The notes beneath the pieces are model-generated. The model saw nothing but the letters and a program-made list of their open reading frames with translations. It did no database searches and was not told the DNA's origin. Source: Schmidtea polychroa (Eukaryota). Taken from it: DNA of 64,000 nt. Below, piece by piece: positions 10,341-41,890 of the stretch. The first letter of the stretch is position 1, and each line of letters starts with the position of its first letter. The stretch is taken from positions 101,162,397 to 101,226,396 of the forward strand of contig CM097887.1 in the NCBI GenBank assembly GCA_044892525.1. The letters are read 5' to 3'. Made by a program: the position numbers and the translations under genes.

Positions 10341-10856
10341 TATTTTCGCGATTAAAACTTAGTTGTTTTCATGGAGTAAAATACTAGTTGTTTTCCTTTG
10401 TAAATTAGTCGGATTTAAAGCAAAATTTTTGGTTTCATTAGGAATTGGTATTTCTTCATGTTTATTATCCGGTTTTATTCAACTTTCACTTAATTTAATA
10501 TTTCAGTTTAATTTTCTATCAGGCTTTATGCTCTATTTTCTTTAAAGTTATAAATATACTCATTGATTATAGTAAATAACTGTAAATTTTGATTATTTTT
10601 ATTTATGTTATGTATATTTTTATCTATATATTTCCTTATTTTGTTTTAAAAAAATGCAACAAAAAATATAATAATTTTATATACCAAAAAATAGTTTATT
10701 TCCCTAAAATTTAATTACTCGATATTACTCATACTAGGAAGACATTTCTATCATCAAACTCTGTATTATTTGAAAATTTAGATTTTAAAACTCACTGATC
10801 ATATATAGGATTGTGTGATTACTATTGTTAGTTGTGATTATTAGGTGTGTTATAAG

Positions 10857-13800
10857 TGTTGGGCTAAAACGTGGAGTTTCGAAAACTGGAGCGAATAGAA
10901 AAGTAATCCTTGAAAAATAAACGAAATAAAATAAAAATATAAAGTACCATCAAATTCTCACTAATAAATCAAAAAGGAACAATAAAATATCAATAAGAGA
11001 ATAAGAATAAGTAAAACAAACTAAATAAAACCCAATAAACCCCTTGAGATTTAGAAATAAAGCGATTTAGGACCCAGCAGATGAAATAGAATAAAATAAG
11101 TAAAAAAGTGACAACAAATAAACGAGAAATTTAAGAAATAAATAAAAAATAAAACTATCTTTAAGTCTAATTAAAACAAAAAATTATATTACAATAAAGT
11201 AGCAATAAATCCACAGGAAAAATAGGAGGAAAATAATAAAAATAAGAAAATAAATAAAATAATAATAAGAAATAAGTTAAGTCATTAAAATCTAATATAT
11301 TATAATAAAAAACATAAAAATAATAATAAATAGTAAAAATACAAACAAGTCGTGTCCTGATTGGACGAAAAATAATATATAAGGAACGGAAAATATCTGT
11401 AGAGTACCACTTTTAAAAAATATTCTACAGGTAAACTTTGGTTCGTTATGACCACTTTTAAAAAATATTCTACAGACTTGACAGATTTCGGAACCTTTAA
11501 TTATCCTACAGCGAACTAGTTCAGAGATTACCAAACCAAACCGAGGAAGGAATATATAGAGGCCAAACCACAAATCCATTCGGGAAAAATTTTAAATTCA
11601 ACCGATTTAACTTCAGTTTTCGAAACTCAAGTTGCCTTTCTTCATGGTACCGGCGACTGTACCATCTGAGAACTCCCAGTGTGATGTGGACGAGTTGGAA
11701 TTGTACTGCAGTAGAGGACACCACCGTGGAAAGGTTGGTATGCCTAAGAAATCACGAACATGCTGAAAGGAGAATGTGATATGTGTAGGGTATGATATTT
11801 GTCATATTAGAGATCCACCAAGGAGACGAGGAGGTTTCGGTTAGGTAGGAGGAGCAACATCATACTCGGAGATCCAAATGATATGGTCGCCGGGTAAATT
11901 TTCTTTATGCATTTTTCTATCATTCAGTTTGATTATGGTATTGTTGATTTGGTTGAATGGAAACGAGTTGATTGGTCCCTCTTGACGGTGCAAGGAGGCG
12001 GCAGCAATGAATGCCTTCTTGGGTGTGTCGTGAGGGGTGAAGAAACTCAGTAGGTGGAACATCCAGTTGATAAGTGAAAGTTCCTTCATCAAGCGCGATC
12101 GTCTATAGAGCGTACCATCGGTTCATTTAGTCAAATCGAGATTTCCAGTAGTTGTAGAGATGATTTGAATTCCGAATGCAGGCAATTCAGAGCGAGATAG
12201 GCAGTGACGTTCGTACAGATTCGATAATAATCCACATAGCTAGGAGAAAAATTTTTTTCGTGATATTCAGCCGGTCGATCGACGTAGTTAGGAAAGAGCA
12301 GTGTTGACCATAGATTGCAAGTAAATCCAACGATTTTTCGGTGACGCACTGCGTTCGCAAGGTCCTGTCTGATTTGTGCCGTCATGATGTTAGCGGTTAC
12401 ATCCATTGTCGATGTACTCTTACGATTTGATTGTCGTCCGTGAGTCGCCATTGCCAGTGATAAAAAATCTCTCGCTGACAGGGAAGTAAACATCTTGCAG
12501 TGAAATTATCAAAATTTTTACTTCGAGCTCGCAGGCAATAGTCGCCAACGATAACAAAATCAGTTGATTTACATTAGCCAGCGTAGAGTTAGTCGACAGG
12601 AGATATCTGATAATGTCCTAGAGAAAGAGATAACGTGTCGGTTTTTCTGGGGAAATGTCAAATGGATAAGCTGATAGTCATTGATCTGAATAAATATCGT
12701 AAAGGGAAATTAGATGATAATGTTGAGCTTACCCAATAATCTACGAAGTTGTCGCCCACTCAGATTGATTAATCTGATTTTCCGATTCATCTACGACTGC
12801 TTATTTGAGGAATCTATTACGCAACCACTATTATTCCGACTTGAGTATGCACATACACACGCACCACCGTCGAATCTACATAGGGCAGTGTAAAAGTAAA
12901 TACACAATTTTTGGTGATGTAATAGCGGCATGATGATGTGAATTTTTCTAGAACGGTGAGATAATAAGATGGAGTAAAGGAATGGATTTCCCCTACACAA
13001 CTCGATATATAATAATTTATCATAACAGCATAAACCATCATTCGCGGTGATAGCCTACATACAGTTACAGATGCCACCAGGAGTAATGACACACCTACAC
13101 ATTCAGTCATAATGCATAATCACAAGTAAACGTTTTCCATGACGACGATTTCGACGCGTTATTGGAATTAATTAGATGTAGATTTAGAGCTGAATTTTTG
13201 ACTGATTACCTGATCAATTCCATAATTTTGAACGAGATAAAAACATAAATAATCTATTCCGTCGCCGTGAATTATTTCTCTGTAATTTTAGGTACGCCTA
13301 CATCGACGGATTGCCATAATGATATCGGCAAATTTTTAAATAAAAATATACTAAGGGGAACAAGGTTGAAGGGAATAAAGTAAAAGACGAGTTTTACCTG
13401 GGAATGGCCCATCCGAAAGTAAACCCAAAGGGCGAGGTTTATGTAGAGAGAATTTTTGGTGTACGAAATCCCCGTTTCCTTTTCTTAATTTACACGAATC
13501 AGGTGAAGAGATTTGAATGTTTGCAACTGAATGACTACGAATAGAGATGGATGAAGAAGTGTGTGGGTCATCGTTGGGTGGTATGTTTGATAAACCTCCA
13601 AAACCATGCCCAAAAATTTGATTTTGTTTTTTGCCACTGATAGAGGTTTTTCCGAGTAAATCTAAACAATGATTGATTTTCTAGATGGCTACATCGTCCA
13701 ACAACGCCAAAGAACTTCGCCCGTGTTTTTCTTGTGCGGACAAGAACGCGGATATCGCCCAACTGCACTTATATATCGGGGCTCTCAAAAAGAGAATTGA

Positions 13801-14984
13801 TCTCTATGAAGGAACGTGGTTCTCCCCGCCACAAATGAAAGAGGAACGCAAGAAAATTCTCCGATTAGAGCATTGCAGGGACAGCCTGCTAGAGGAAAGC
13901 CGTTGCCAGCGGCTCACCATCAAAGCGCAATCAGAAGCCCTCCATAAGGTGTATACGGAGGCAGAACTGGCTAAGCGGGTGCGAGAATTTCCCGTTCTAG
14001 ATGGGACGAATGTTTTTCCCCTTCACCACCAGTCTTCTACATCTTCCAGTTCGCACTGCCAGGGGCACGGCTCACAACTGCCGCCCATTCCAGCCCCGGT
14101 ATTGTCCAGTCACCAGCCAAAGACAGGTGGACCTACCGATCCCATCGTAGCTCCAATCTTGGTAGCACAAATCGGTACCACGAACACCGAAAACCCCCCG
14201 ACTACCCGCAAACGGAAACGGCCAACTCGAGCCGAGAAGAACCAAAAACGCCGAGATGCGATGACAGCACTCGAGACGTCCTTATCGGCGGCGAAATCAA
14301 AAATCCAAGAGATAACGTCCTCCCATTCAATCCCCTCAAAGGAAGTCTTCCGCATTGTTCCAGCTGAGGGCATCAAATACATTGTAGATAGCCGATTACC
14401 GGTCGACATAGATGAGATACTGGCCGATGGGGATAACTTTGTTTAATGTGATGTACAATTGAGCTTGATTTCCTCTTCATTGAGTTGTAAATTATCTTGT
14501 GAATTTTGCTAAGGTTATATCTTTTGACTGCTGTTGATCTGTTGGTGGTAATGATATTTTTATCGTTTCAGGGTCAATAAAATTTTCTGTTTGATTTCAG
14601 TTTTGTCGAGCTTTCATATATTTGTTTGTGCAATTAGGGTAGATGAGATAATGCTGCGGAATGAAGGTAATTAGAGTTGAAAGTCGTTCCTTTGGACCAG
14701 GATCAGACCGAGTGACACGCATGTATGTGGGTAAGTCCTTCTAAGGCACCGTAGGACCCGAACCGAGAAAGGGTTAGGAGTAGTCCTAAGGCAGGGGCTC
14801 ACCTGCTAACCTTTTCCGACCCGTGTGAGCAGCACCAACATGGAACATCACCATGGGCTCATATGTGGGAATATGCAATCAATCATTTGGAGTATGTGTA
14901 GAGAATGTATAACGGAGCCATGATGCTTGATAGGTGTGATGGAAAGGCATGTATAATTTTTTTTCTTCTCCACATACGCCAACA
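10857..14984 (+). repeat. 5' LTR (4128 bp)
   Basis: Starts TGTTGG, ends CCAACA; matches 36992-41132 at offset 26135, then 26148. Confidence 0.97.
13685..14446 (+). CDS. LTR-encoded 253-aa protein of unknown function (basic NLS-like TRKRKRPTRAEKNQKRR)
   Basis: Intact in both LTRs, ttttctag immediately before the ATG, higher GC than surrounding LTR sequence. Confidence 0.7.
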   Translation: MATSSNNAKELRPCFSCADKNADIAQLHLYIGALKKRIDLYEGTWFSPPQMKEERKKILRLEHCRDSLLEESRCQRLTIKAQSEALHKVYTEAELAKRVREFPVLDGTNVFPLHHQSSTSSSSHCQGHGSQLPPIPAPVLSSHQPKTGGPTDPIVAPILVAQIGTTNTENPPTTRKRKRPTRAEKNQKRRDAMTALETSLSAAKSKIQEITSSHSIPSKEVFRIVPAEGIKYIVDSRLPVDIDEILADGDNFV

Positions 14985-14991
14985 TGATTTT

Positions 14992-15009: not shown

Positions 15010-15444
15010 TGTATATTGATTTGTTTGATTGTCTAATTTTGTGTTATGATGTGTTAGATTAACAATTTAATTAATTATGATAAAAATGGAATCGGGGCTG
15101 AAACGAATTATAGTGCAATAAAATGATACGAACTGTCTGAGTTTGAAATGGAGCATGTGGTGAATGAAACGAACCTAAATGAGTTGGAATGAATGTGATG
15201 AAGTATGATGAGAAAAGTAAACGGGAATTGGTTATTGTGATTAATTTTAACTGGTTAAAATAAAAAGGGGGACGAAAGAAAGTAAGTGATTAAAGCAAAA
15301 AGATGAAAGGGGAATTTCAAAGATCGAATAAAATACAAAAGTTAAAACACTAACGCATAAAAGTCAACGAATATTAATACAAACATAATAATATTATTTT
15401 TAATACCAGCAGGAACAAAATAATAACAACACATTCATTTAGAT

Positions 15445-15924
15445 ATGTCAGAAGCTAGACAACATCTACAACAGCTAAGCCGGTTCGTCGAAATAGAAAA
15501 TGATTCAATAAAAACATTAAGGGAAAAACTGAAACAAATAGAACTGCTAGAACAACAAAGCCACAACGCACCGCTGATATCCAAACAAAATTTTCTAACC
15601 GACAGATTAGGATCAACAAATACCGATACCGACTTGTCTATTCATTACCAATGGTTTCAGCAACGTCTCGACGACCCCGCTCTGAACATCGAATATGTGA
15701 GGATACGCGAACAAGTCAAAACTCTGTCTCAGCGGATACGAACATCAATAGTAGAGAAAGCAGCGGCCTTGAGAACCTGTAACATTTGCAGGATGCGACC
15801 TGTCAAAATTCTAATTCTACCTTGTGGGCACCTTAGCCATTGTGACGAATGCGCCGCCAGTTTAATCCGTTGCTCTATGTGCACATGCGTAATAAAAGAG
15901 AAGCACACAATCTACTTCAGTTAG
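15445..15924 (+). CDS. Coiled-coil plus C-terminal IAP-type RING-HC E3 ligase (no BIR)
   Basis: CNIC-x11-CGH-x2-CDEC-x6-CSMC ending KEKHTIYFS*, the spacing and aromatic C-terminus typical of cIAP/XIAP RINGs. Confidence 0.85.
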   Translation: MSEARQHLQQLSRFVEIENDSIKTLREKLKQIELLEQQSHNAPLISKQNFLTDRLGSTNTDTDLSIHYQWFQQRLDDPALNIEYVRIREQVKTLSQRIRTSIVEKAAALRTCNICRMRPVKILILPCGHLSHCDECAASLIRCSMCTCVIKEKHTIYFS

Positions 15925-16860: not shown

Positions 16861-18083
16861 AAGGCCTAAAGTAATAGTGAGATAGCATTCAAGCTACAAG
16901 TTGATAACATTTAAATTACTAGTGAGATGGAATATTAAAGCTAGCTAGAAGCAAATTGAGTTTGAAATATGGTATTTGAATTTAGAAAGGATTAAACGAG
17001 CTCGTAAAAGATGATAGTAAAATTCTTTGAGTAAAGAAGGAGAAACGGAAAAGGAAAATGAATTAGGAATAATAGAAACAAAGAATAAGTATGAATAGAT
17101 GACGAACCAAGGAGGAAATAATTAATTAATTGAAGGGGATCCCAGATAGGTAGATAAAGTTCTACAGAATTTTTTGTTTAAACCGGTTAAAAGAATTTTG
17201 TTTGGTTCCGGAGTAGAACCGAGTAAAAGGAAACAGAGACGAAAGAGTAAGTAAAATAGCGGAACCGCGTAAAAGGATTAAGGAAAATATGGGGAGTAAT
17301 AAGCAGTAACTGACAACGACCTATCGATATTATAAATGCTAACTATAGATAATTTATACGACTATATAGATAATTGTTACTACCCCAAATAGATAATTTA
17401 AAATCGACGAAAAATATGGGTTGATGGGTAATTATATTCCGCGAAGAAGCGTATGAGGGGAAATGAAGAGAAGTATAACAGAGGCCCTAAAACGGTGTCT
17501 GTGCTTGAATGTGGCAAAAAGGAATGATTGATTCGTGTAAGCAAAGGCAACACGATATCATATTTTCATTGTAGACATCAGTCCAACCAAGTCAATTCAG
17601 AACCAGCTCAAACGGAATCCAGAGAATATACAAACAACCCAGGAAAAGCAATTCAGAACCCGCACAAAGGAAAACAATATCAGAACCGAACTCGACCAAT
17701 TCCGCAGACGCTAACCGTAGAAAAACCCAAGTGAAAAGACAGAAAAGAGTAAAAAGAAAATCACGGATAAACCCAACCTTAGATCTTCAAGTAAGCCAGG
17801 AGACGTATTATTTTCAGGAGACGAATTAGATCAACTCAAAAGAGGACGATCATTTAGGCAGCAGAGAGGAATATCACAAGGAGCAAAAAGACCCCACAAA
17901 ACACCGATATACGATCAAGAAAACCCCACAGCCGGACATACGCCCAGTCGATCTAGAAGTAGAGAAAGTCTATCCGATATAACAAACAACCTAACCGGGT
18001 CAACAGAAGAATTATCCGTCCATAGTTTAGCTACATCACTAGAAAATTTAAAAGAAATAATAGCATTTCAAGAACCAATCAAG

Positions 18084-18986
18084 ATGAATGTAGCAAAAAC
18101 CGACGAATATAAAGAAAAATTTAGAGGCGAACCGTTCAACGGGAATGCGAACAAGTTGGCAACGTTCATAACCAATTTTGAAGTCTATATCGATGTGTGT
18201 GGATGGACGTCCGAAGCAATTAGTAAACGAATGCCTCTGTTTTTGTGCGATAGCGCACTCGAAGTGTATCTAGAAGCAAAAGAAAGAAATACGAAATTAG
18301 ACAATTGGGAAAACATCAAAACAATTTTGAGAAAAACATTCGGAGCCAGCAAACCGATAAATCAAGCGTTAGGTGAACTGGCAAGTAGAAAACAAAGGGC
18401 AAACGAGTCAATTACGTTATACGCAAGTGAATTGCGAAGATTGGCAAAGAAGGCCATGAACGGAAACTTGCCGGAGGAAAACTTAATTGGTTACTTCATA
18501 GAAGGACTGTGCCGAGAAGAGGTAAGGGCCTCGGTGGGATGTCAAATGTGTAAAACACTAGAAGAAGCTATAGATTGGGCCACAAGATGCGAACTACACC
18601 TCCCGGCACAAATGAATGTCATGCAAGAGGAGGGAAGAATCGCAACAGCAACGGTGAAAACGGAAAATGGAGATAACAATAATCATGAACCCAAGATGAA
18701 TCAGTTTATACCAGGAGCTCATCAAATCTTCAAACCACCACAAGGACGATCAAACGGGAATAACAGTGAACGCAACAACTCGAACAATGGGAACAACTTT
18801 AATAATCGACGAAATATGAACGATAACAAACAATGCCGAACATGCGGTAAACCAGGACATTGGGATAGAGATTGTTACCGAAACGCAAATTGCAATAGGT
18901 GTGGACGACGAGGACACACGGAAAATATATGCCAATCGAGAGGATGTTTTAACTGCGGTCAACCAGGTCATATCTCAAGAGACTGT
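18084..18986 (+). other. Gag region: capsid-like domain and three CCHC zinc knuckles
   Basis: FNGNANKLATFITNFEVY...MPLFLCDSALEVY gag-like segment; knuckles at 18834-18986. Confidence 0.92.
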
Positions 18987-21900
18987 CGAGAAAGGAGCCA
19001 ACAACAACGACCACCACAGCGAAATAATAACTATGCACCAAATCCGCAACGACAAAGTAATCCTAGTGAGGGAAAGCAAATGAATGTGATGCAAGAAATT
19101 TCACAAATGAAGCAGATGATGCAACAAATGATGAGACCGAGACAAGAGCAAGTACCACAACAAACCCAGAATATACGCATGATGAGAAGCACCGAGAATC
19201 TTAACAATTATGAAGTGCAACAACATGCACAAGAATGGCAAAGACTACAAGCTGAAGAAGAGAGGATAAAAAGAGAGCGAATTCAGCAGCGACAAGAACA
19301 ACCACTACGAATAAATATGATGAGGATGGTAAAGGAGATAAAGGAGCAATATTGTTACAACTATGGTAAAAATCCAAGAGTTGTACCTACGAGCGAACCA
19401 GAGAAACCGAAAGAAACAATTACAGCAGCAAAGAAGGAAAATTCAACAACACCGCTAAAAGGAAATCAGAGAATTCAGAAAATATTTTGGAAAAAGATAA
19501 AAGATAAAATCGAAAGAGAAAATGAGAAAACAAAAACAGAAGCAGAAGCAGAGAATAACGAAAATGAAAAACAGATTAATCATCTAAATCATGATATGAT
19601 ACGAGAATTAGACTCAGAAGAGCTAACGTTATTCGAGAACAAAAAGTTAAAGAAAGTACCAAGAATGAGAAATTTACGAATTAATATGATGAGGACAACA
19701 AAGAAGGTGTTGTCAACAGATGACGATGAGGATTATGTGAGTAGCCTTGGTGGAGAAATGTTACAGTTAAATGAAAATATCGACCAACTAAGAGAGAAGA
19801 TCGGAACAGAGGAAGAGGAGAGTGAAAGCGACGTAACAAGTGAAAGCGAAGACGAGAATATCGAAATGAAATTGAGAAAAGAAAGAGAAGAAGCGATAAA
19901 ACAAGTAAAGGAAATACTTCCAGTGGTGGTAAGAAACCAGGAATTCATTGACATCATACCATACAGACGCTTCATACAAAAGATAATGAAACTAGAAAGA
20001 AACGGAAAAGATCTAATACCAAACGAGGAAAAAGCGATAATAAAGAAGTATATGGAAAAAATGAAACAAGCGGAGACAACACGCTATGTAATAAAAATCG
20101 GAACGAGTAAAGGACTCGAGAGAATATGGATAAAAAGCACAGTCACAGACGAGCTTTTTGATTGGATAAGAGAACATTTGGGCAGCTCGAAAAAGAAAGA
20201 GTATTTATATCAATACCAAGGAGAACAAATTAAGCCAGACATGCACCTAATAGATGCATTGATCTGGCCAGGAGAAACTCAAATATTGAAATTGTATAAA
20301 GAGAAGCAACCAGCAAATATTCACGAATGGGCTAAAGACGCCAAGGCCGAGTATGACTTTAACATCAAGCTGAAGCTGGAACAAATAAAACAATGCACCT
20401 TGCGACGAAATCTAGATAAACTAATCAAACAAATTCAAGAACAAGTCGAAGATAACTGGGATTTACTCATAGCAAGACGAACTGCAGACATGCATGAACT
20501 AATGAGCCGATTACGAGATACAGAATTGCTCAGGATGAGCGATTGGAGAACCATAAATTTGATCCACAAATACGGAAGAGTAAAAGAAACGCAACCGCAG
20601 AAATTAGAAATAACCATATGGCTACCAAACGAGGAGAAACGACGAATAAAGATGAGTAATCAGAGTACGGTGGATGACTTAGTAACCAAGATAAACCAAG
20701 AGATAACGGAAAAAGTACGAAGCGAGAGTAGCGACAGGATGATAGATGATGTAGTCATGATGTACGATAAAATAATATTACGGGCCGAAGATGACACCTC
20801 GCTAAGCGAAATGGGAATATGGGATAATCATCAAATCATCAGAATATTGCCCATGGACGAATTCCGAACAAGAGATGTAACATACCAGAAAGAAATACGA
20901 GACAGGATGAAAACGCTATATCAAAAATCAGTAGAGATAATTGAAATTCATCAACAGTGGCTAAAAGAAAAAGAGCTTCAAGGAAAAATAAAGAAACTAA
21001 GTGTTAGATCCTGCAGACGAACCCCATGGGAAAGGATGTGGAATGCGGAAAACAAAGAATGGGAAATCAGGAAAGGGATTTTCGTGGAAACAGACATTGG
21101 TGAGATAGAAAGCGAATCAGAAGAAGAGGAAGATGAACCTCCAAAATACGAAGAGGACGAAATAGAATCGACATCGAACGACGAAAGCGAAACGGATGTT
21201 ACATCAGAAAGTGAAACGGAAACCAGACATATTCATGCGATGAGAAAGAAAGAACGCGAATATGCCGATATGGACAGCGAAGAAGCGATGGAAGCTCGAG
21301 AACGAGAAGAGAAGGAAAGATATAAACAATTAGGTGATATCTTAGCAACGGGAGCAAAAAATCAAAAACGACAAGTAATAGCATTGGCTAACATCATCCT
21401 AAAGACATCAGAGAATATCCACAATCTAAGAGAAATGGCGAAAGCGATTGAGGAATACAGACAATATAACGAATGGTACCCAGAACAGCTAGAACAAATT
21501 ATTAGGAAATGGAGAAACCAAGAATGGGCACAAGATACCCAGGAAAGGTATCGTATCCGAGTCAAGTATCCCGACAAAAGCATTGAGGATACAGAAGTAC
21601 ATCCAACAACAAAGATCAGAGAGTTAAAAAAGAAATTAGCGTACGAAACTCCATTTCACCTACAACTATTCGGAAAATCGTTGGATGATAATGCAGATGT
21701 CGGAATAACACCCATGAGATTGGGGGAGATCAATGTAGTGACAATGGCAGAAACATTGGGAAAACCGATTAAAAGGAAGAGCAAATCCAGTAAACCTACG
21801 AAAGGTAGCTTGAGTACACCAAGCCCTAACAAAGTGGCGAGTAAATCGAATGAAACCGAGGAAATCGAGGAAATTATATTAGAAGACAGCGATGAAGGAG

Positions 21901-24900
21901 CTGGAGAAAGATCACCAATTCTGGTAAGATGGCCGACAGGAGCCGAAATATGGACAACAAGCCAACCGTCAACTAGCTATCAGCAGCCAAATAAGCTGAG
22001 TATCGAGGAGATTATCGATAATACAACAGAAACCGAAACCGACGAACAATTCCAACGACAGAAAGGACCAACGAAAGCAACACCAGAAGGTCAAACGGAC
22101 AAAATAATAGACGAATGGAACGAATGGCTGAGAAACAACGATAGCTCATTACCAAGAACGGATAACGAGAGAAACCCGAATTATGAAAATACAAGGGAAG
22201 CCGGAACAATGATGGAAAAACGGGCAAAAGGGAGACCCAAGAAGCAAGGAGAAAAACCGGAATTTAAAACCAGAGAACAGTTGAAACAAGAACAAGGACA
22301 AGTCAGACTAGAAAAACTGGATAAAATAGTGTGGGACTTAAAAGAAGCTCAACCAACAATCGAGAAAGGTGAAAAATGGATACGGGAGCTAGTAAAAGAT
22401 ATGTTAATAATAACAAACCCGCAATTGAGACGGTTATGGCAACGAAAAGTAGCAAGCGTAGACGCCAGACAACTATGGAATACAATATCCGGAATAATTC
22501 CGAAATTAATCAAAGAGAAGACAAAAACCACTAAAACCGATTGGGAAGAGACAAGAAGAGTAATTGAACAATTAACTTTAAACGCAAACGACGACGAACA
22601 TCATTTAGTAGTATTAACGTATCTAATGTACAATTTGATGGGATTAGCAGCAAGGAAAATACCTAACAAACAATTCGCAAATCATGTAGAAATGACCGTT
22701 ACAATCATTGAAAATACAATCGAACCACATATTATCCGCGCCGGTGGGTGGAAAAGACTCATACAAGCGCCACGAAAAAACGAGCAAGAGAGATCAATGC
22801 AAATTCGGTTGAAGAAATTACTAAACGAGCTAGAATGGGAATTGCCATTGAAAGACCCAGCCAGCAGAAAAGCGTCGATTAATTCACTAATGATGACCAT
22901 GATGATATGGATGCTCTGCACCAGTGGAGCCGCGGGATTTACTATTTACGACTGTGACAATTCGATAATAGGAGAAAGATACTCCCTGAGAGATATAGAG
23001 GAATGTAGACAGGCGTCTCCGAATAAATTAGATATAGTAAAAAAGAAAGTCTCCTATCACGTATACCAAGAATCAGATTTCATTAGAACGCAAGCTAGAG
23101 AATGCGTAGTATCGAAGAAAGTGTTGGCATATTACTGTGGACAATACTCATATTCAACCCTCATATTACCTGGATTAGATAAAGAAATAGTACCTATACA
23201 ACGGGAAGACTGTAAAGAGCTTTTTGGAACCGGAGCGATGAGAATCAGGGATGGAGTAACAATACACGGACAAAGCGGAATGATCAAGACGGAAAGTATC
23301 TATGTAGCCGGACGAGTAAAATCAACTGATGGATCATGTAACGGAGGCACATATACGATCAGAGGAGAGGTGATATCAGGAGTAGTAGTAATTGAGTCCT
23401 ACACAGTGGAGTTGAAGGAATACGAAGCACAATTCGACGCAAACAACTATCAAATGAAAACCAACCCAGCATGCAGAGCTACGGAAAACGTGTGTAGAAC
23501 GGGGATTTCGACTATAATATATGAAGCTAACACCCAAAAATGCCGACTCCAATTGTTAAAAAGTGCTCTATTCAATGAAGTAAAAGGAGAAATTTACGAA
23601 AACGAGGATGACGATGAAGAGAATGGAAACGTAAGGATGCGAAATGGGAAACCAGTCCCACCATCCCCCAAAGAAAAGAGACTCACAACACAAAAAACAC
23701 CAACGGCATTAATTACAGATGACCCAGATATCGGTATGAGATTTATCAGAGAGAAAGAGACCACCAAATGTGACAGCATAGTATATCGGACGAATTACGC
23801 AGGTATCTACATGTCAAGGCAAGTAATAGACCGAGCAGTGGGAAAGGTAGCAACAGAGGACGTAAAATTGTACCTGTACGCCAATAACAAAATGGATTTT
23901 TTATTTCATCGAGGACAAACGACAATGCAAAAAGTGTATTACGATCTTATACAAAATGACTGTTCATTGAATAAAGAGATACTAAAAACAAAATTAGCCA
24001 TCGCAATAACACACCCAGATAACACAATGCCATCACTCCCGTTACCGGATGGACACTTTGGTAGAATGGTGGGAGAGGTAATGTATACATATGCATGTAC
24101 CAAGACATTTGCGCGACTGCCAAGAAAGCCCACAATTCCACCAGGGAAATGCGCAAACGAGTTGGAAATTAGTTACAAAGGGCGAAACAGATTCGTTCAA
24201 CCCGTCACTAGGATAATGAACCCAATTGGATTTTATCCAAACACCTTTAACTGTTCAAATGCATACGGACCGTTATATGAAAAACCCGATGGGAAATGGA
24301 TAATGTTACCAGTAAAAACCGAAGTACAAGAGCCTAAAAAGTTTGGATTAATAGAACTCGCAACAGAACAAGATTTCAAACCAATTGATGTGTCAAAGGC
24401 TGGTATGTACTCACCAGAGGATTTAGAAACGGCACGATTAAACGTATTATTCCCAGCAAGACGGGAATCCATTCTATCGAATATGGTTACCATAACTGGG
24501 GGAACGAATTTCCAGTCAGGCCCCAATTACGAACTATTATTGTCACCTGATCATTTTCAACAAGCCACGTCAAACATGATGAAAGCAATGTGGGGAAGAT
24601 TTCTAGTATTCGGTCAAATGATGGCAGGAATATTGGGAATCATTCTTATTATCCAGATTGTTAGAGTAATATTGACTCAAATGTTGGCGTGTTTTGATAT
24701 CTATAAGAGAGAAAAGAAAGTAAATTGGAAGTTGATAGTAGGTTTTCTACCATTTTTGGCAAAAACAATGGTGTTGCACGGTCATTCTAAAGACATACAT
24801 AGAATAAAACGATTGATCAAAATACTGACAAAAATAAAAGGAACTGACGAGGAAGTCGGTAGACGATTTCGGAAAACCATGTATGATGAAGCAACAAGAG

Positions 24901-27900
24901 CGCAATTAAAGAAGAACAAACCAAAATTCTTAGACAGATTTAGGAATCGATCAAACAGCAGCGATAGTGATGATGACGACAATGGGAATGACAAATATCC
25001 ATATCCAAGTAGAAACCCGAATGAAAAGCCAATAGAAACAGCGCCATATTGGGAGAAAGAAAAAACAAATACCTGGATAGCCAACGGAAGTTATATACCA
25101 CCAGATATCGTTGGACAACAAACAGCTTTGACCATGACCCAAAATATGTATCCACAGTTACCAAGTCAACCAGGGATGAACTATATGCCGACCCGAAGAA
25201 CGAAAAGTGTAGACCAAGCGGATGACGTAAGAACGATAGCAGTAATGAGTTCACCAGGAGGTGCGGCAGTAACAGTCATGATCCAAATCAACGGGAAAGA
25301 GACAAGCGCCATGATAGATACCGGAGCAAACGTATCAGCAATAGCAATAAACCAAATACCCAGTAAATGTTGGAAAGATATCGAACAAACAACTATCCAT
25401 ATTATTGCATGCAGTAAAGAAACCGTAGACGTAGTAGGAAGATGGTGGACTACGTTACGATATCAGGATAACGAAATTGAAACGTATCTAGCGGTGATAC
25501 CCAAACTGAGTGAACCATGTATAATCGGAACGGATTTGATGCCGGAATTGTTTAAGGAAGTGGTAATCGATTTAACAACAATGTGTCTAAAAGACAAAAT
25601 GGGTAGAATATGCAAGATGAACGCAATAATTAGATGCCCGGAGAAAATAATTGTACCCGCAAAATCACAGATGATATGTCAAATAAAAGTGGATGCAGGA
25701 ATGGAAGGAGAAGTCATTTTTGAGCCAAGCAAATCATTCGAAAAACGACGAGAATTACCATTAGCAAGAGAAATAATAACAATGAATGAAGACGGGGAAA
25801 TACCAATTAACATCACAAATTTCGAGGAAGAAGACAAGATCATATATGAAAATGAAAGATTGGGTAGATTGACACCCATGATAGACATCGAATTACCAAA
25901 AATCACCAACGAAACAACGAAAGCTGACGAATTATGGATAATGGATAGCACCTTGCTAACGGAAAAAGAAAAGGAGAGACTTCAACAATTATTGATAGAA
26001 TATAAAGATATATTCGCAATTTCGGATTTAGATTTGGGAGCATGCGATGTTACATTACACGCAATACCATTAATAGACGAAACTCCAATCGCTCTACGTC
26101 CATACAAACTAGCAGAGAAGCAAAAAGAGATAGCCGAAGCAGAAGTACAAAAAATGCTAGATGCACAAGTGATCGAACCAAGTTGTTCGCCATGGCAATT
26201 TCCAGTAGTCATGGTGAAGAAAAAAGATGGTACTCAGAGATTCTGTATCGATTATCGGAAACTAAATGCAGTAACAAAAAGAGACACATACCCGTTACCA
26301 GACATCAATGAGATGTTACTTATGTTACAGGGGGCCGCATATTTTACATCTTTAGATCTGAAAAGTGGATATTGGCAGATCAAAGTCAAGGAGGAAGACA
26401 AAGAGAAAACAGCATTCACATTGGGCCGAGATCTATACCAATTCAGGAAAATGCCGTTCGGACTGACCAATGCCCCAGCATCATTTCAGAGATGTATGAA
26501 TTTTGTCACACACGGGATCAAGCAATGTATGGTATATATTGATGATTTATTAATATATTCAGCAACTTTCGAACAACATTTGGAAGACATTAGAAACGTG
26601 TTCATCCGATTACGACAATGGAAACTGAAACTTAAACCATCCAAATGTGATTGGGCAAAAGAAAAAGTTACGTTCTTAGGACACATAGTGTCAGCAAAAG
26701 GCAAAGAACCAGATCCAAGAAACATAGAAAAAATAAAAACATGTCCAGCACCAAAAACTGTCACCCAAGTTCAAGAATTTCTCGGATTATGCGGATATTA
26801 TCGTAAATTCATCAAAAACTATGCAGGTATTGCGAAACCAATACAGGAATTAGTGAAAAAGGATATTTCATTTATTTGGGGTGCAGAACAACAAAAAGCG
26901 TTTGAGACATTGCGAGATAAATTAATTGAAGCCCCAATACTAGTACATCCTGATTTCAAGAAACCGTTCTTATTAGCAACAGATGCAAGTGGATATGCAG
27001 CCGGAGCAATATTGGGACAACTCGACGAGGAAGGGAAAGAAAGAGTGATTGGATACTACAGTAGAACGTTTAAAAAGCATGAGAAAAACTATTCCGTAAC
27101 CGAGAGAGAAGCGTTAGCAATCATACAAGCGATTAAACACTTTCGATATTTGTTATGGGGACACGAAATATGTATCACCACGGATCATCAACCACTAGTA
27201 TGGCTTGGTCAACACAAAGAAGCCTCAAGTAGATTGATGCGATGGGCAATGCAGTTACAAGAATATTCGCCGTTCATAAAATTCAAAGCGGGAAGAGCGA
27301 ATGCCAATGCGGATTGTATGTCCAGATTTATCTTTCCAGATTTAGTAGATCACGAAATGCAACGAATATGTCTGATGGTAGCAGAAGATTTAGATTTTTG
27401 CCAATTACGAAAAGACCAACAAGAGGATACAGAGTTGAAGCAAATCATTGAATATGTGAAAACAGGGAAAGCAGAGGTATATGAGAAAGATCAAAAATTG
27501 AAGGAGCATATGGATAAACATCGACATCGATATATTATCGAGAAGGACTGGTTGTTGATAATGGATGGCGAGAAAAGACTGATGTGCATTCCCGAGAATA
27601 GACGTAAAGATCTACTAACACAATACCATGACGGAAGACTCGGAGGACATATGTCATCTAAAAAGACGTTGGCACGAATGAAACAAAAATACTTCTGGCC
27701 TACATTGACCGAGGATGTAACAGAATGGGTGAAAAATTGCATAACTTGCGCAACCAGAAAAAACACGGGAACGAAATGGAAGGCACCATTAAAGCCAATG
27801 CCAGTACCAGCGGAACCAATGACAATGATATCAATGGACGTAGTCGGTCCACTACCAGAATCAGATAGAGGGAATATATATATATTGGTAATCACGGATT

Positions 27901-30900
27901 ATTTGACAAAATTCCCCGAAGCATTCGCAATGGCAGATCAGAAAGCAAGAACAATCGCAAAAATACTAGTAGAGGAGATATGCTGTCGATATGGAACACC
28001 AAAACAGATACTAACTGATCAAGGGACAAATTTCATGAGCGAAATAATGAGCGAAGTCACCAATTACTTCAAGATTGCAAAATTAAGAACATCACCGTAC
28101 CATCCACAAACTAATGGTATGACAGAAAGATTCAATGGAACACTGATTCAAATGTTATCAAATTATGTCGATCGTCATCAACGAGACTGGGATGAATATA
28201 TAAAATTATGTCTAATGGCTTACAGAATGTCGATTCACGCGTCCACAAAGATGAGTCCGTTCAAGTTGATGTACGGCAGAGAATGCAATATGCCAATGGA
28301 TTTGGAGTATCAGCCACCAATATCACAGTATATGGAAATAGACGATTATGTAACCAAGTTCAAGGAAAGAATGCAGGAAATCTGGGAAACTGCAGGATTG
28401 AATATAAAATTTTATCAAGAAAGCTACAAAGAGTTACATGATAGAAAGAAAAACGTCAAACAGCATACGTTCCAAACGGGCGATTGGGTGATGATCGAAA
28501 CACCAGAATTAATTCCAGGAACCACCAAAAAATTACAACGAAACGGTAAAGGTCCGTATGAGATTCTATTCGTCGGAGAAACTAATGTAAGAGTACGATT
28601 AGTGAACAACCCTTTTACAAGACCAATATACGTAAATGTTGCACGATGTAAGCCAATTCCGAAAACCGCCACCAGTCAGCCAGAAGGACGTACATTAACG
28701 ACAAGATCACAAACGTATAGAATAAACATGTTACAGCAGATAAACGAACCAACAGGTAATCGATTAGGGTTACAACCATCAGAAGCCGAGAAAATCATAA
28801 AGGAAGTAAAAGTTAAAATGCCCGGATGGGCAGAAGACAGATTAGATTTTGAGATATTGGGAGGTCTGCTAACAATGATAGAAAACTATGCAAATCGAGA
28901 AAGAACACACCCATTACTTAGGGTAGTAAAAAGTCAATGGCCTATATTATTTACGATCACAGACCATTATGGAGATACACCGCTGCACAAACTTTTAAAG
29001 GTCGGGAATAATGAACAAATACTGGAAACGATCGAAGCATTTCGCGACTGTAACATTTCGACGGATCAAGAAAACAACCAAGGTTACACTCCATTAATGA
29101 TAGCAGCCAATCGGGATAAAGCTAAAGATATTATCATCGCATTACTCGAAACTGGGTCAAAGATAACCACACAAGATCACAACCAGAAAAATGCACTACA
29201 TCATGCAATCGAAGGGAAAAGTACGGAAGCCTTCATAATCTTAGTAGATCTATTATCATATGAGGATAATAGGGAGATAGGAAACATGTATGACGGGTTA
29301 TTAACTGCAATCAAAGAGAAATTAATAACAATTGCTGGATTACTAATTGCATGGAGGAACCCGATAAAAAACGATTATATGGTAGATATAAACGAAACAT
29401 TTACCAGAGGAGAAAACACCTTGATGAGAGAAGCGATGAGAGGACATCACCTATTCGAAATTCCAAATCAACTACTACAACGTGGCATAAAGTTCTCAAA
29501 TCACAAAGACGAACAACTAATCAGAAAACGAATTACCAACTTCGAAAAAGCTATATCTCAATTTACCGATAAAGTACAAGTAAAATTTTGGGAAACCGTG
29601 AGTGTTTTACATATGATGGAAACTATGAACAAAATTCGAGAAAACTACCTAAGTATTATTCAAGTTCTAACAGCAGAGGAACGCATTAACAATTCGAACA
29701 AGAAAAAGATAAAAATGAAGAAAGTAAAAGCAAGAGAGTCTGAGGAACAAGTCGATCAACCAATAACCGATATAGCAACAACAAGTAAACCAAAGACAAT
29801 AAACTCCGACCAAGAGATAGTAGTACGTAAGGCTAAAGAAGTATTCTTTGAAGAAATGCAAGATCTATCCGATGAAGCGATACTAGCAAAAATAACCAAA
29901 ACAGTACACACCTACGCAAGAGATCAGACCACAAATCTAGACATAGGAAAAATAAAAACATTTATACCACTAGCATTCACCTTACCAACAAAAGACTCAA
30001 GAACACCATTACAACAAGCCATTTTAGCAGCAAAAGAGAACAGAGCAATAACCATCATAAGAATCCTTAGAGACTTCGGAGAAAAATCTAATGCAAAAAA
30101 TGAACAAGGAGAAACAGCAATGATGTATGCAGCAATAACAAAGATACACCCGAAAACCTTACATATACTACATCAATCAGGTTCGAGACTTGACGAAATA
30201 TCAAACGAAGGAAATTCTACCATGGATTGGGCAACAATACAACCAAACTTGGAAATGATTAGATTCATTTGTAAAAATGCTATAAGAGCTGAGGTAGAAA
30301 ATATCTGTAAAAACACGTCACAATTCCAATGGAACACGATACGGATGAACTTAGAAGCCATGAAGTTATTGCTAACATGGAAAATACCACAAAGCAATAA
30401 ATATGCAATAAATATAAATGAGTTCTACGAAAACGGAGAAAATGCTATGGTTAAAAATACACTAACAAAAGGAGGAACTCCGAAAATCATAATGATCGTA
30501 TTGAACAGAGAGGACCTCAAATTCACGCAAAATCTAAACGAACAAAAGCGAATCGGAAAACATCGCCGTATACAATTGAGAGAACTGGTAAAAGAATGGA
30601 ATAGAAAGAGACATGTAGCAACAGGCAGAAAGGAGTTCGAATTCGAGGCAAAATTAGCAAGAAACAGAGTGCTAACGGCATACCGCAGATTGTTGAATGA
30701 TATAAATGTCGAGGACGACATTTTAAACGATAGCGGGGGAGATAAAGACGATAAAGACGACGATAATAATGAAAAAGGTCGAAACGGGAATAAAGAGAAA
30801 GAGAAATCAGAGGAGAATAATCAAGAAAATAACGACGCGAGTAAGAAAAAAGAGGAAAATAACCCGAGAAACCGAATAAAGCAAGAAGAAAAGACGAATA

Positions 30901-36991: not shown

Positions 36992-39900
36992 TGTTGGGCT
37001 AAAACGTGGAGTTTCGAAAACTGGAGCGAATAGAAAAGTAATCCTTGAAAAATAAACGAAATAAAATAAAAATATAAAGTACCATCAAATTCTCACTAAT
37101 AAATCAAAAAGGAACAATAAAATATCAATAAGAGAATAAGAATAAGTAAAACAAACTAAATAAAACCCAATAAACCCCTTGAGATTTAGAAATAAAGCGA
37201 TTTAGGACCCAGCAGATGAAATAGAATAAAATAAGTAAAAAAGTGACAACAAATAAACGAGAAATTTAAGAAATAAATAAAAAATAAAACTATCTTTAAG
37301 TCTAATTAAAACAAAAAATTATATTACAATAAAGTAGCAATAAATCCACAGGAAAAATAGGAGGAAAATAATAAAAATAAGAAAATAAATAAAATAATAA
37401 TAAGAAATAAGTTAAGTCATTAAAATCTAATATATTATAATAAAAAACATAAAAATAATAATAAATAGTAAAAATACAAACAAGTCGTGTCCTGATTGGA
37501 CGAAAAATAATATATAAGGAACGGAAAATATCTGTAGAGTACCACTTTTAAAAAATATTCTACAGGTAAACTTTGGTTCGTTATGACCACTTTTAAAAAA
37601 TATTCTACAGACTTGACAGATTTCGGAACCTTTAATTATCCTACAGCGAACTAGTTCAGAGATTACCAAACCAAACCGAGGAAGGAATATATAGAGGCCA
37701 AACCACAAATCCATTCGGGAAAAATTTTAAATTCAACCGATTTAACTTCAGTTTTCGAAACTCAAGTTGCCTTTCTTCATGGTACCGGCGACTGTACCAT
37801 CTGAGAACTCCCAGTGTGATGTGGACGAGTTGGAATTGTACTGCAGTAGAGGACACCACCGTGGAAAGGTTGGTATGCCTAAGAAATCACGAACATGCTG
37901 AAAGGAGAATGTGATATGTGTAGGGTATGATATTTGTCATATTAGAGATCCACCAAGGAGACGAGGAGGTTTCGGTTAGGTAGGAGGAGCAACATCATAC
38001 TCGGAGATCCAAATGATATGGTCGCCGGGTAAATTTTCTTTATGCATTTTTCTATCATTCAGTTTGATTATGGTATTGTTGATTTGGTTGAATGGAAACG
38101 AGTTGATTGGTCCCTCTTGACGGTGCAAGGAGGCGGCAGCAATGAATGCCTTCTTGGGTGTGTCGTGAGGGGTGAAGAAACTCAGTAGGTGGAACATCCA
38201 GTTGATAAGTGAAAGTTCCTTCATCAAGCGCGATCGTCTATAGAGCGTACCATCGGTTCATTTAGTCAAATCGAGATTTCCAGTAGTTGTAGAGATGATT
38301 TGAATTCCGAATGCAGGCAATTCAGAGCGAGATAGGCAGTGACGTTCGTACAGATTCGATAATAATCCACATAGCTAGGAGAAAAATTTTTTTCGTGATA
38401 TTCAGCCGGTCGATCGACGTAGTTAGGAAAGAGCAGTGTTGACCATAGATTGCAAGTAAATCCAACGATTTTTCGGTGACGCACTGCGTTCGCAAGGTCC
38501 TGTCTGATTTGTGCCGTCATGATGTTAGCGGTTACATCCATTGTCGATGTACTCTTACGATTTGATTGTCGTCCGTGAGTCGCCATTGCCAGTGATAAAA
38601 AATCTCTCGCTGACAGGGAAGTAAACATCTTGCAGTGAAATTATCAAAATTTTTACTTCGAGCTCGCAGGCAATAGTCGCCAACGATAACAAAATCAGTT
38701 GATTTACATTAGCCAGCGTAGAGTTAGTCGACAGGAGATATCTGATAATGTCCTAGAGAAAGAGATAACGTGTCGGTTTTTCTGGGGAAATGTCAAATGG
38801 ATAAGCTGATAGTCATTGATCTGAATAAATATCGTAAAGGGAAATTAGATGATAATGTTGAGCTTACCCAATAATCTACGAAGTTGTCGCCCACTCAGAT
38901 TGATTAATCTGATTTTCCGATTCATCTACGACTGCTTATTTGAGGAATCTATTACGCAACCACTATTATTCCGACTTGAGTATGCACATACACACGCACC
39001 ACCGTCGAATCTACATAGGGCAGTGTAAAAGTAAATACACAATTTTTGGTGATGTAATAGCGGCATGATGATGTGAATTTTTCTAGAACGGTGAGATAAT
39101 AAGATGGAGTAAAGGAATGGATTTCCCCTACACAACTCGATATATAATAATTTATCATAACAGCATAAACCATCATTCGCGGTGATAGCCTACATACAGT
39201 TACAGATGCCACCAGGAGTAATGACACACCTACACATTCAGTCATAATGCATAATCACAAGTAAACGTTTTCCATGACGACGATTTCGGAATTAATTAGA
39301 ATTAATTAATTGGAATTAATTAGATGTAGATTTAGAGCTGAATTTTCGACTGATTACCTGATCAATTCCATAATTTTGAACGAGATAAAAACATAAATAA
39401 TCTATTCCGTCGCCGTGAATTATTTCTCTGTAATTTTAGGTACGCCTACATCGACGGATTGCCATAATGATATCGGCAAATTTTTAAATAAAAATATACT
39501 AAGGGGAACAAGGTTGAAGGGAATAAAGTAAAAGACGAGTTTTACCTGGGAATGGCCCATCCGAAAGTAAACCCAAAGGGCGAGGTTTATGTAGAGAGAA
39601 TTTTTGGTGTACGAAATCCCCGTTTCCTTTTCTTAATTTACACGAATCAGGTGAAGAGATTTGAATGTTTGCAACTGAATGACTACGAATAGAGATGGAT
39701 GAAGAAGTGTGTGGGTCATCGTTGGGTGGTATGTTTGATAAACCTCCAAAACCATGCCCAAAAATTTGATTTTGTTTTTTGCCACTGATAGAGGTTTTTC
39801 CGAGTAAATCTAAACAATGATTGATTTTCTAGATGGCTACATCGTCCAACAACGCCAAAGAACTTCGCCCGTGTTTTTCTTGTGCGGACAAGAACGCGGA

Positions 39901-41132
39901 TATCGCCCAACTGCACTTATATATCGGGGCTCTCAAAAAGAGAATTGATCTCTATGAAGGAACGTGGTTCTCCCCGCCACAAATGAAAGAGGAACGCAAG
40001 AAAATTCTCCGATTAGAGCATTGCAGGGACAGCCTGCTAGAGGAAAGCCGTTGCCAGCGGCTCACCATCAAAGCGCAATCAGAAGCCCTCCATAAGGTGT
40101 ATACGGAGGCAGAACTGGCTAAGCGGGTGCGAGAATTTCCCGTTCTAGATGGGACGAATGTTTTTCCCCTTCACCACCAGTCTTCTACATCTTCCAGTTC
40201 GCACTGCCAGGGGCACGGCTCACAACTGCCGCCCATTCCAGCCCCGGTATTGTCCAGTCACCAGCCAAAGACAGGTGGACCTACCGATCCCATCGTAGCT
40301 CCAATCTTGGTAGCACAAATCGGTACCACGAACACCGAAAACCCCCCGACTACCCGCAAACGGAAACGGCCAACTCGAGCCGAGAAGAACCAAAAACGCC
40401 GAGATGCGATGACAGCACTCGAGACGTCCTTATCGGCGGCGAAATCAAAAATCCAAGAGATAACGTCCTCCCATTCAATCCCCTCAAAGGAAGTCTTCCG
40501 CATTGTTCCAGCTGAGGGCATCAAATACATTATAGATAGCCGATTACCGGTCGACATAGATGAGATACTGGCCGATGGGGATAACTTTGTTTAATGTGAT
40601 GTACAATTGAGCTTGATTTCCTCTTCATTGAGTTGTAAATTATCTTGTGAATTTTGCTAAGGTTATATCTTTTGACTGCTGTTGATCTGTTGGTGGTAAT
40701 GATATTTTTATCGTTTCAGGGTCAATAAAATTTTCTGTTTGATTTCAGTTTTGTCGAGCTTTCATATATTTGTTTGTGCAATTAGGGTAGATGAGATAAT
40801 GCTGCGGAATGAAGGTAATTAGAGTTGAAAGTCGTTCCTTTGGACCAGGATCAGACCGAGTGACACGCATGTATGTGGGTAAGTCCTTCTAAGGCACCGT
40901 AGGACCCGAACCGAGAAAGGGTTAGGAGTAGTCCTAAGGCAGGGGCTCACCTGCTAACCTTTTCCGACCCGTGTGAGCAGCACCAACATGGAACATCACC
41001 ATGGGCTCATATGTGGGAATATGCAATCAATCATTTGGAGTATGTGTAGAGAATGTATAACGGAGCCATGATGCTTGATAGGTGTGATGGAAAGGCATGT
41101 ATAATTTTTTTTCTTCTCCACATACGCCAACA
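36992..41132 (+). repeat. 3' LTR (4141 bp)
   Basis: TGTTGG...CCAACA; near-identical to the 5' LTR. Confidence 0.97.
39833..40594 (+). CDS. Second copy of the LTR-encoded 253-aa ORF
   Basis: Differs from 13685-14446 by one residue (YIVDS vs YIIDS). Confidence 0.7.
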   Translation: MATSSNNAKELRPCFSCADKNADIAQLHLYIGALKKRIDLYEGTWFSPPQMKEERKKILRLEHCRDSLLEESRCQRLTIKAQSEALHKVYTEAELAKRVREFPVLDGTNVFPLHHQSSTSSSSHCQGHGSQLPPIPAPVLSSHQPKTGGPTDPIVAPILVAQIGTTNTENPPTTRKRKRPTRAEKNQKRRDAMTALETSLSAAKSKIQEITSSHSIPSKEVFRIVPAEGIKYIIDSRLPVDIDEILADGDNFV

Positions 41133-41890
41133 TTAGAAATTTTGTGAGAACCCAGCAGTCTTCTTTAAAACTTGTTTTGGGACTGCTGGGATGCTTATGT
41201 GTGGTAAAAAAATAATACGCAACAGTAGAAAAATAAATATTAAATGAATGTGTAACATACAACGAAACTAACTTTACTTTTACAAAGTTTATTGAACAAT
41301 ACAAAATTAGAAAACCTTTTCTTAAACTAATTTACTTCTAAGTTGACCGGAAATTAATTGAGAATAGTTTTCTAATTCGTCTGAGGATCTGACAATTAAT
41401 TTTAATATTTTTTAGATTTCTTAATTTGTTTCTGTGATCTTCTGTTTAGTTCTTATATTTTTTTAAAATTTTCCATTCAATTTCTAAAATTTGCTTCTGT
41501 AATCTACTATTTAATTTCACAGATTAAATCTACTGTTTAATTTATTAAATTCGTTTCTGGTATTTTAGTTGTTAATTTGTCTATCGATTTTTTTAATTTT
41601 TGTAATTTTTCATTTACTTTAGTGATAATTCACACTAATGGTTTTTTAATTTTTTTAATAATTTTAACGTAAGGTTAACAAAATAGCAACACACTACAAA
41701 TTGTAGTTACAATTTCATATAAAATGATAATAATAAAAATAACTACACTCTATTATTTGAAAGTTCCAGATCATTTAGATTTTAAAACTCACTGATTATA
41801 TAGGATTGGAACGATAATCTTGTCCGATACAAAATAACATTTATTTAACCAATAAAGGCAACATGTAAATTAAAAATTATAAGCAAAGCA

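Follow-up and report, generated by a model that had tools for sequence, protein, structure and literature searches.

The closest described systems are giant planarian retroelements. Burro-2, -3 and -4 carry a BCL2-like motif and an in-frame env between BCL2 and protease, according to passages of Arkhipova and Yushenova (PMC6431247). Both the domain and the gene order were thereby already published (2018-2019). Passages of PMC13465017 cite Lee 2026 for Burro1 shielding stem cells from apoptosis via a captured IAP, and the de-repression of BURRO1 upon piwi knockdown is mentioned in passages of PMC8532177. In flatworm GAG-ENV-POL elements, the HSV/gB-type Env is flanked by signal peptides (Chary and Hayashi, passages of PMC13524379). 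A comparable arrangement of membrane signals is found in the core of HCV, which is ER-anchored by the E1 signal peptide after signal-peptidase cleavage and is released by a second cut (PMC5402940).

The window, i.e. the whole analysed stretch of 64,000 nucleotides of Schmidtea polychroa DNA, contains a 30.3 kb element (10857-41133) with two LTRs of 4.1 kb each, which are 99.6% identical by self-BLAST. It is a young retroelement of the Burro-type Ty3/gypsy group with the domain order Gag-Bcl2-Env-PR-RT-RH-IN-ANK. The assignment to Burro was made by size, LTRs, ORF and domain order against the published description in passages of PMC6431247. As stated there for Burro/GYPSM1 (citing Jurka 2007 and Grohme 2018), both exceed 30 kb and have a single giant ORF, which is about 4,700-5,100 aa long in Burro. 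A three-CCHC Gag, the BCL2-like motif, env between BCL2 and protease, ankyrin and MATH are common to both (PMC6431247, same passages). In contrast, MATH of the window is located in a downstream RING+MATH ORF and no BIR was found in the element frames scanned with Pfam, whereas the cargo of Burro includes ubiquitin-like and BIR domains. A ubiquitin-like match in the polyprotein of the window reached only E 0.04 with Pfam. The features of the element are as follows.

10857..14985, + strand: 5' LTR, 4.1 kb, starting with TG; self-BLAST 99.6% to the 3' LTR
15427..15924, + strand: short accessory frame with a C3HC4 RING at its end (Pfam zf-C3HC4_3, E 4.8e-8)
17721..31955, + strand: single polyprotein ORF of 4,744 codons, first ATG at 18084
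18234..18986, + strand: Gag capsid domain (Pfam Retrotrans_gag, E 3e-9) with three CCHC knuckles (zf-CCHC, E 2e-10)
22338..22778, + strand: predicted Bcl-2-fold domain with eight predicted helices, ORF aa 1540-1686 (AlphaFold2, structural matches)
22593..22604, + strand: DEHH at the BH1 position, NWGR absent, register uncertain (Pfam and profile alignments)
22728..22763, + strand: BH2-like HIIRAGGWKRLI, with His for Trp in the window's lineage
22764..22871, + strand: charged linker from BH2 to the hydrophobic run, differing in length among lineages
22872..22937, + strand: internal signal peptide predicted for Env, with 22 uncharged residues and with Ala and Gly at -3 and -1; the PF24664 match starts here
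22938..24680, + strand: Monjiviricetes/HSV-gB-type Env, comprising the ectodomain and a transmembrane helix at about 24591-24680 (PF24664 E 9e-72; hydropathy)
25275..28106, + strand: protease, RT, RNase H and integrase core (Pfam)
29025..29249, + strand: ankyrin repeats (Pfam Ank_2, E 4e-15)
30942..31007, + strand: further predicted internal signal peptide, from hydropathy; lineages B and C have this layout too
31008..31790, + strand: predicted second lumenal domain and C-terminal transmembrane helix (profile A5 against angiopoietin-1 receptor (Tie2) chains, E 0.005)
32522..33961, + strand: TRAF-like accessory ORF with RING and MATH (Pfam MATH E 2.5e-25, RING E 1e-4)
36992..41133, + strand: 3' LTR (self-BLAST against the 5' LTR)

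A primer-binding-site-like stretch, which we take to be tRNA-Pro-like, follows directly after the 5' LTR. The flanks (10851-10856 and 41133-41138) were without an exact target-site duplication, which may be due to recombination between two copies. Each LTR contains a 253-codon frame (13685-14446 and 39833-40594, + strand) with no Pfam match, and three more frames of 208-354 codons with no convincing Pfam match lie before the 3' LTR (34156-36760, + strand). A basic GRP motif at 22221-22244 (+ strand), presumably AT-hook-like or a nuclear signal, precedes GGW by 150-170 residues; it is present in lineage B and absent in C and D. Env had no match in the PDB. At the ends of the window, tandem arrays with units of 321 bases (1-2250) and 243 bases (59513-64000) were detected; the 321-base array falls within an open frame, and a relative of it in inverted orientation is found at about 55900-57300.

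The original prediction had placed a Bcl-2-like domain before Env, and its motifs were found in frame as claimed: DEHH at 22593, HIIRAGGWKRLI at 22728 and the AAG/FTIYDC junction at 22937/22938 (its numbering, aa 1400-1620, starts from the first ATG, 18084). The exact BCL2 spacing is correct as arithmetic, with 50 residues from the D of DEHH to the first G of GGW, but does not count as evidence. The distance from NWGR to GGW was also 50 residues in one host-type Bcl-2 of the same genome and in the Bcl-xL row, the latter being hand-counted. The spacing is uninformative because DEHH has no residue in common with NWGR and the alignments disagree on the register: Pfam gave the register of the original prediction, profile A1 gave +2 and profile A4 gave -1. 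BH1 itself is degenerate or lost, as had been proposed, the Trp-Gly pair missing in 8/8 lineage representatives, with the Arg kept in three of them and replaced by Lys in two. The BH3 Asp is absent by inspection. In the BH2 motif W-I-x-x-x-G-G-W, GGW was invariant in 15/15 rows, and the first Trp, which is His in the window's lineage, was retained in most others. The pattern [WH][IV]xxxGGW, chosen post hoc, was found in 0/2000 polyprotein shuffles.

The score of the window against a profile of nine host-type Bcl-2 cores was 3.5 bits, equalled by 2/300 local shuffles, while three sister lineages scored 12.5-25.3 bits. With the Pfam Bcl-2 model (PF00452, cut-off 31.4), the window resulted in 14.6 bits (E 0.05-0.1) and sister lineage B in about 28-33 bits. 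Because its 3.5 and 14.6 bits compare with higher scores of the sister lineages, the window alone is borderline and the signal is carried by the family. The best E value in a single-sequence phmmer search of the PDB was 1.2. Single-sequence searches of the protein databases gave no matches, none was found in the viral contigs searched, and the best Atlas recognition, 0.85, was under the threshold. There is no stop that would close a C-terminal tail anchor; the frame continues into Env and an anchor is possible solely through cleavage. By NWGR, the PF00452 cut-off and the tail anchor, the stretch is a diverged Bcl-2 relative and not a canonical multi-BH member.

The proposed fold was supported by structure prediction together with profile search. 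AlphaFold2 with a 15-row element-only alignment resulted in eight helices with pLDDT 68.3 and pTM 0.65, compared with pLDDT 47 on the single sequence; four of the 15 rows come from a lineage that was found via the Pfam Bcl-2 model. In the VIA-align comparison of the model with 48,161 chains, ranks 1-35 were all Bcl-2-fold and the first unrelated chain had Z 6.4. The best match was BHRF1 (Z 13.8, rmsd 2.7, 134 residues), followed by KSHV Bcl-2 (Z 13.2), Hydra Bcl-2-4, ASFV A179L (Z 12.9) and Bcl-xL. Lower values were obtained with poxviral folds: M11L 10.0, N1 9.6 and A52 9.3, the range for N1, A52, A46 and B14 being 7.2-9.6. Helical bundles are able to reach Z 13 by chance; a chance likeness is argued against by the uniform top rows, the gap beneath them and the separate profile match. 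In that match, profile A4, built from the 15 element rows, hit Bcl-xL in the PDB with E 5.8e-5, and the best 60 of 91 matches were all Bcl-xL/Bcl-2. Profile A2, which lacks the lineages found with Pfam Bcl-2, reached E 0.1 only, beneath unrelated chains. Foldseek gave TM values up to 0.67, the PDB matches listed being only of the Bcl-2 family, and viral Bcl-2 proteins were on top in BFVD; no match at E <= 0.001 was obtained by Foldseek in PDB or BFVD. Altogether, the domain is strongly predicted to adopt the Bcl-2 fold, a helical bundle with a hydrophobic helix at its centre.

The genome also contains other Bcl-2 genes. Short genes with a true C-terminal hydrophobic tail are dispersed in multiple copies (L046-L060, L151-L155) and adjoin A32-type ATPase, integrase-chromodomain and PolB-like frames, which points to Polinton/adintovirus-like elements. 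One of these families contains a short intron-like insert, in frame and with a stop. Seven near-identical host-type genes with intact NWGR (L031-L037) are clustered in about 0.9 Mb of one contig.

The copies of the element domain scored in its own genome, 150 of 1,658 candidates, were all 91-100% identical, and the stretch was stop-free in 142/150. Searches querying the Bcl-2 and Env families and an outside homolog gave 103 frames with an Env start among 141 sequences of the genome. A GGW-type motif was located 48-76 residues upstream in the same frame in 98 of these; in the other five, the upstream frame was broken or the motif changed. Most of the loci had been chosen by Bcl-2-region queries, and the unbiased count is given by those chosen by the Env family alone, where the GGW domain was upstream of Env in 12/12. 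The lineages are 49-50% identical to the window in RT, 36% in Env and 24-27% in the Bcl-2 core, and protein P0002 from outside the genome had the same layout in a representative search. This divergence indicates that the lineages and the domain are old. In a tree of 17 Bcl-2 cores, which excluded near-copies and genes interrupted by a stop, the eight element rows fell on one side of an unstarred branch (85/96; 81% of bootstrap trees). The window row is on a long branch and no donor is nameable.

Between the window copy and a 92%-identical subfamily, 13.7/315 nonsynonymous and 63.3/84 synonymous sites of the Bcl-2 core differed. The corresponding values were 2/88 and 21/23 for the linker, and 2/49 and 9/11 for the signal segment. 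These ratios indicate purifying selection on the Bcl-2 domain. As the whole ORF has the same pattern, the selection shows a kept protein and not its function.

The hydrophobic segment before Env has the anatomy of a signal peptide, and this part of the original prediction was borne out by the start of the PF24664 match and by the n-region, h-region and (-3,-1) residues. The match begins on the segment at profile positions 3, 5, 4, 5 and 4 in 5/5 lineages (3 in the window), in a model whose seed may include retroelement proteins. A net positive n-region precedes the segment in 8/8 lineage representatives, with +1 in the window. Small residues at -3 and -1, ahead of xxxYDC, were found in 7/8 representatives and 61/98 copies; the 37 misses all belong to one lineage with Asn at -3. 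The hydrophobic run of the window is the weakest of the eight, its 13-residue Kyte-Doolittle mean being 1.62 compared with 2.51-3.22. The segment is likely Env's own signal peptide, used internally.

In 3/3 full-length lineages, a second signal-like segment was detected after the integrase or ankyrin, and behind it lie one more domain and a transmembrane helix at the terminus. The equivalents of this unit are located at L072:2052-2915 (+) and L077:602-1753 (-), with no Bcl-2 before the second segment. The second lumenal domain is weakly Tie2-ectodomain-like, presumably FN3, and the C-terminal unit is possibly a second surface protein. The simplest reading is that internal signals belong to the polyprotein design and that the first of them arrived together with Env.

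With moderate confidence, the whole is read as a Bcl-2-fold domain followed by an Env signal that is used internally, whereby the Gag-to-Bcl-2 precursor would be tethered to the ER and would likely help host-cell survival. Gag, the spacer domains and the Bcl-2 fold would be synthesized in the cytosol. The segment very probably directs the chain to the ER, the N-side remaining cytosolic, and is cut after AAG, so that Env would enter the ER lumen. The transmembrane helix of Env would put protease, RT, integrase and ankyrins back in the cytosol, and the small surface protein would be exported through the second signal. Env would be released by signal peptidase, and the Gag-side precursor of ~1,600 residues would stay ER-tethered by the leftover signal; from the topology, the upstream chain is probably tail-anchored after the cut, at least temporarily. 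A later release by the element protease or signal-peptide peptidase may follow, and stable anchoring of the Bcl-2-containing product is uncertain. The original prediction of a membrane-anchored viral-type Bcl-2 protein left by the cleavage thus holds in part: an ER-tethered upstream product is expected from the topology and the HCV core-E1 case, but it would be the whole Gag-side precursor of ~1,600 aa and not a free Bcl-2.

Among the alternatives, removal of the anchor by the element protease, as in flaviviruses, or by the host signal-peptide peptidase, as in HCV, is quite possible, with the odds leaning against it; the mature Bcl-2-like protein would then be soluble or packaged into particles. 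A candidate protease site overlapping the start of the run ranks 20/4,734 against five junction sites, which is better than the leave-one-out ranks of three of these five (6, 9, 47, 86, 97), and a further site, ~200 residues ahead of the domain, has rank 9. However, the score prefers Met/Ile-rich text, by which hydrophobic runs score high by composition, and the five junction sites had been chosen by eye close to domain boundaries. An element-protease site conserved ahead of the signal was rejected as a general feature, only the window's lineage having one, with no such motif before the run in lineages B, C and D. The peptidase variant is favoured by Thr, Cys, Ser and Gly within the run, which are typical of signal-peptide-peptidase substrates.

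The function proposed for the tethered domain, dampening of apoptosis by binding host Bak/Bax-type proteins, is given even chances. The closest folds are those of BH3 binders (Z 12-13.8), though Z shows no function, and the reported IAP-mediated protection of stem cells by Burro1 also speaks for it. Against it stand the loss of the BH1 and BH3 residues described above, which in cellular Bcl-2 proteins engage BH3, and the ER anchor, which keeps the domain off mitochondria. These losses would fit a protein with no BH3 binding, which acts on innate signalling (TRAF/TBK1/NF-kB) in the manner of the poxviral A52, B14 and N1 folds, whose groove is closed and which bind proteins of the TLR/IKK pathways, or serves as a particle-assembly scaffold. 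In its favour is also the coding content of the element, with a TRAF-like ORF, a RING frame and ankyrin repeats. We regard such a role as rather unlikely, since the N1, A52, A46 and B14 folds are less close to the model than the BH3 binders, with the same limit on the meaning of Z. For NF-kB inhibition, which the original prediction had offered as an alternative, no support was found, and, according to passages of PMC13563047, no clear homolog of NF-kB was identified in S. mediterranea. A search for the Rel homology domain in the own genome gave 0 candidates, and the controls were silent too, so the zero is uninformative.

The idea that the captured gene's own tail anchor was reused as the Env signal, leaving a stably anchored viral-type Bcl-2, is improbable. 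A tail anchor and an internal signal share their orientation, and short hydrophobic segments are not traceable by sequence, which leaves descent from a tail anchor a small probability. In the Bcl-2 genes on Polinton-like elements of the same genome, the true tail anchors are located 22-30 residues past GGW and <=7 residues from the stop. The run of lineage C, 23 residues past GGW, falls inside this range, but the spacing is 43 in the window and 35-53 in the seven representatives other than C, i.e. 23-53 over all lineages. The segment aligns to the first positions of PF24664 in 5/5 lineages, as fits the N-terminus of a viral glycoprotein, and in the full-length lineages the other internal signal, located after ankyrin or integrase, has no Bcl-2 before it. 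Descent of the Env signal from a Bcl-2 tail anchor is therefore not supported; as topology, the double use in the original prediction holds.

Very improbable is the origin of Env chiefly from a spliced or internally started RNA with a Met just before the run, giving the Bcl-2/signal junction little weight: a Met does lie 13-26 residues before the predicted cut in 7/8 representatives, and other gypsy elements as a rule have env as an ORF of its own (passages of PMC6431247), but L081 has no such Met, which favours internal use of the segment, and, with Pol further downstream in the frame, any Gag-Pol translation crosses the segment. The contigs covered came from three presumed-RNA runs and one of unspecified kind; the presumed-RNA runs had no listed joint, and contigs cannot show the absence of splicing or expression.

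The reading with an internally used Env signal can be extended, tentatively, to a flavivirus-like production of the whole element. One polyprotein would be threaded through the ER at two internal signals, resulting in three products: a Gag-ubiquitin-like-Bcl-2 precursor tethered to the ER, a Pol precursor anchored through Env, and a second surface protein that is FN3-like. The Env signal would act as the Gag anchor in place of a matrix domain, and the trimmed precursor would display a working anti-apoptotic Bcl-2 on the ER. If this is true, a retrotransposon, like HCV and the flaviviruses, would process one polyprotein with signal peptidase and thereby bring its capsid precursor, its fusion protein and a regulator of apoptosis to the same membrane. 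The domain would be a possible second survival factor for elements that are reported to protect planarian stem cells.

In comparison with the described elements, the passages of PMC6431247 on Burro leave internal signal peptides, membrane topology and a second surface protein unmentioned. Smed_errantivirus_1-6 are Platyhelminthes GAG-ENV-POL errantiviruses of the HSV/gB type, and their two listed coordinates span about 14.8 kb (passages of PMC13524379). The word 'bcl' has 0 occurrences in the main text and seven supplementary files of that paper. No literature on the signal/anchor topology or the domain function was found in a search outside of which stand Grohme 2018 and Lee 2026, both possibly covering the topology or a test of the domain. 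Added here are the structural support for the fold, the age and constraint of the domain, and a testable topology.

The predicted fold and the eroded BH motifs are shared with EBV BHRF1, KSHV Bcl-2, ASFV A179L and poxvirus M11L, N1 and A52. Each of these viral homologs has a gene to itself, in many cases including a tail anchor, whereas the domain of the window is a polyprotein segment whose sole candidate anchor is the Env signal. In its membrane arrangement, the locus resembles HCV core-E1, where the upstream cytosolic protein ends in the envelope signal; the arrangement is experimental in HCV, a member of an unrelated virus class, and predicted in the window. At the flavivirus C-prM junction, the upstream protein likewise ends in the envelope signal.
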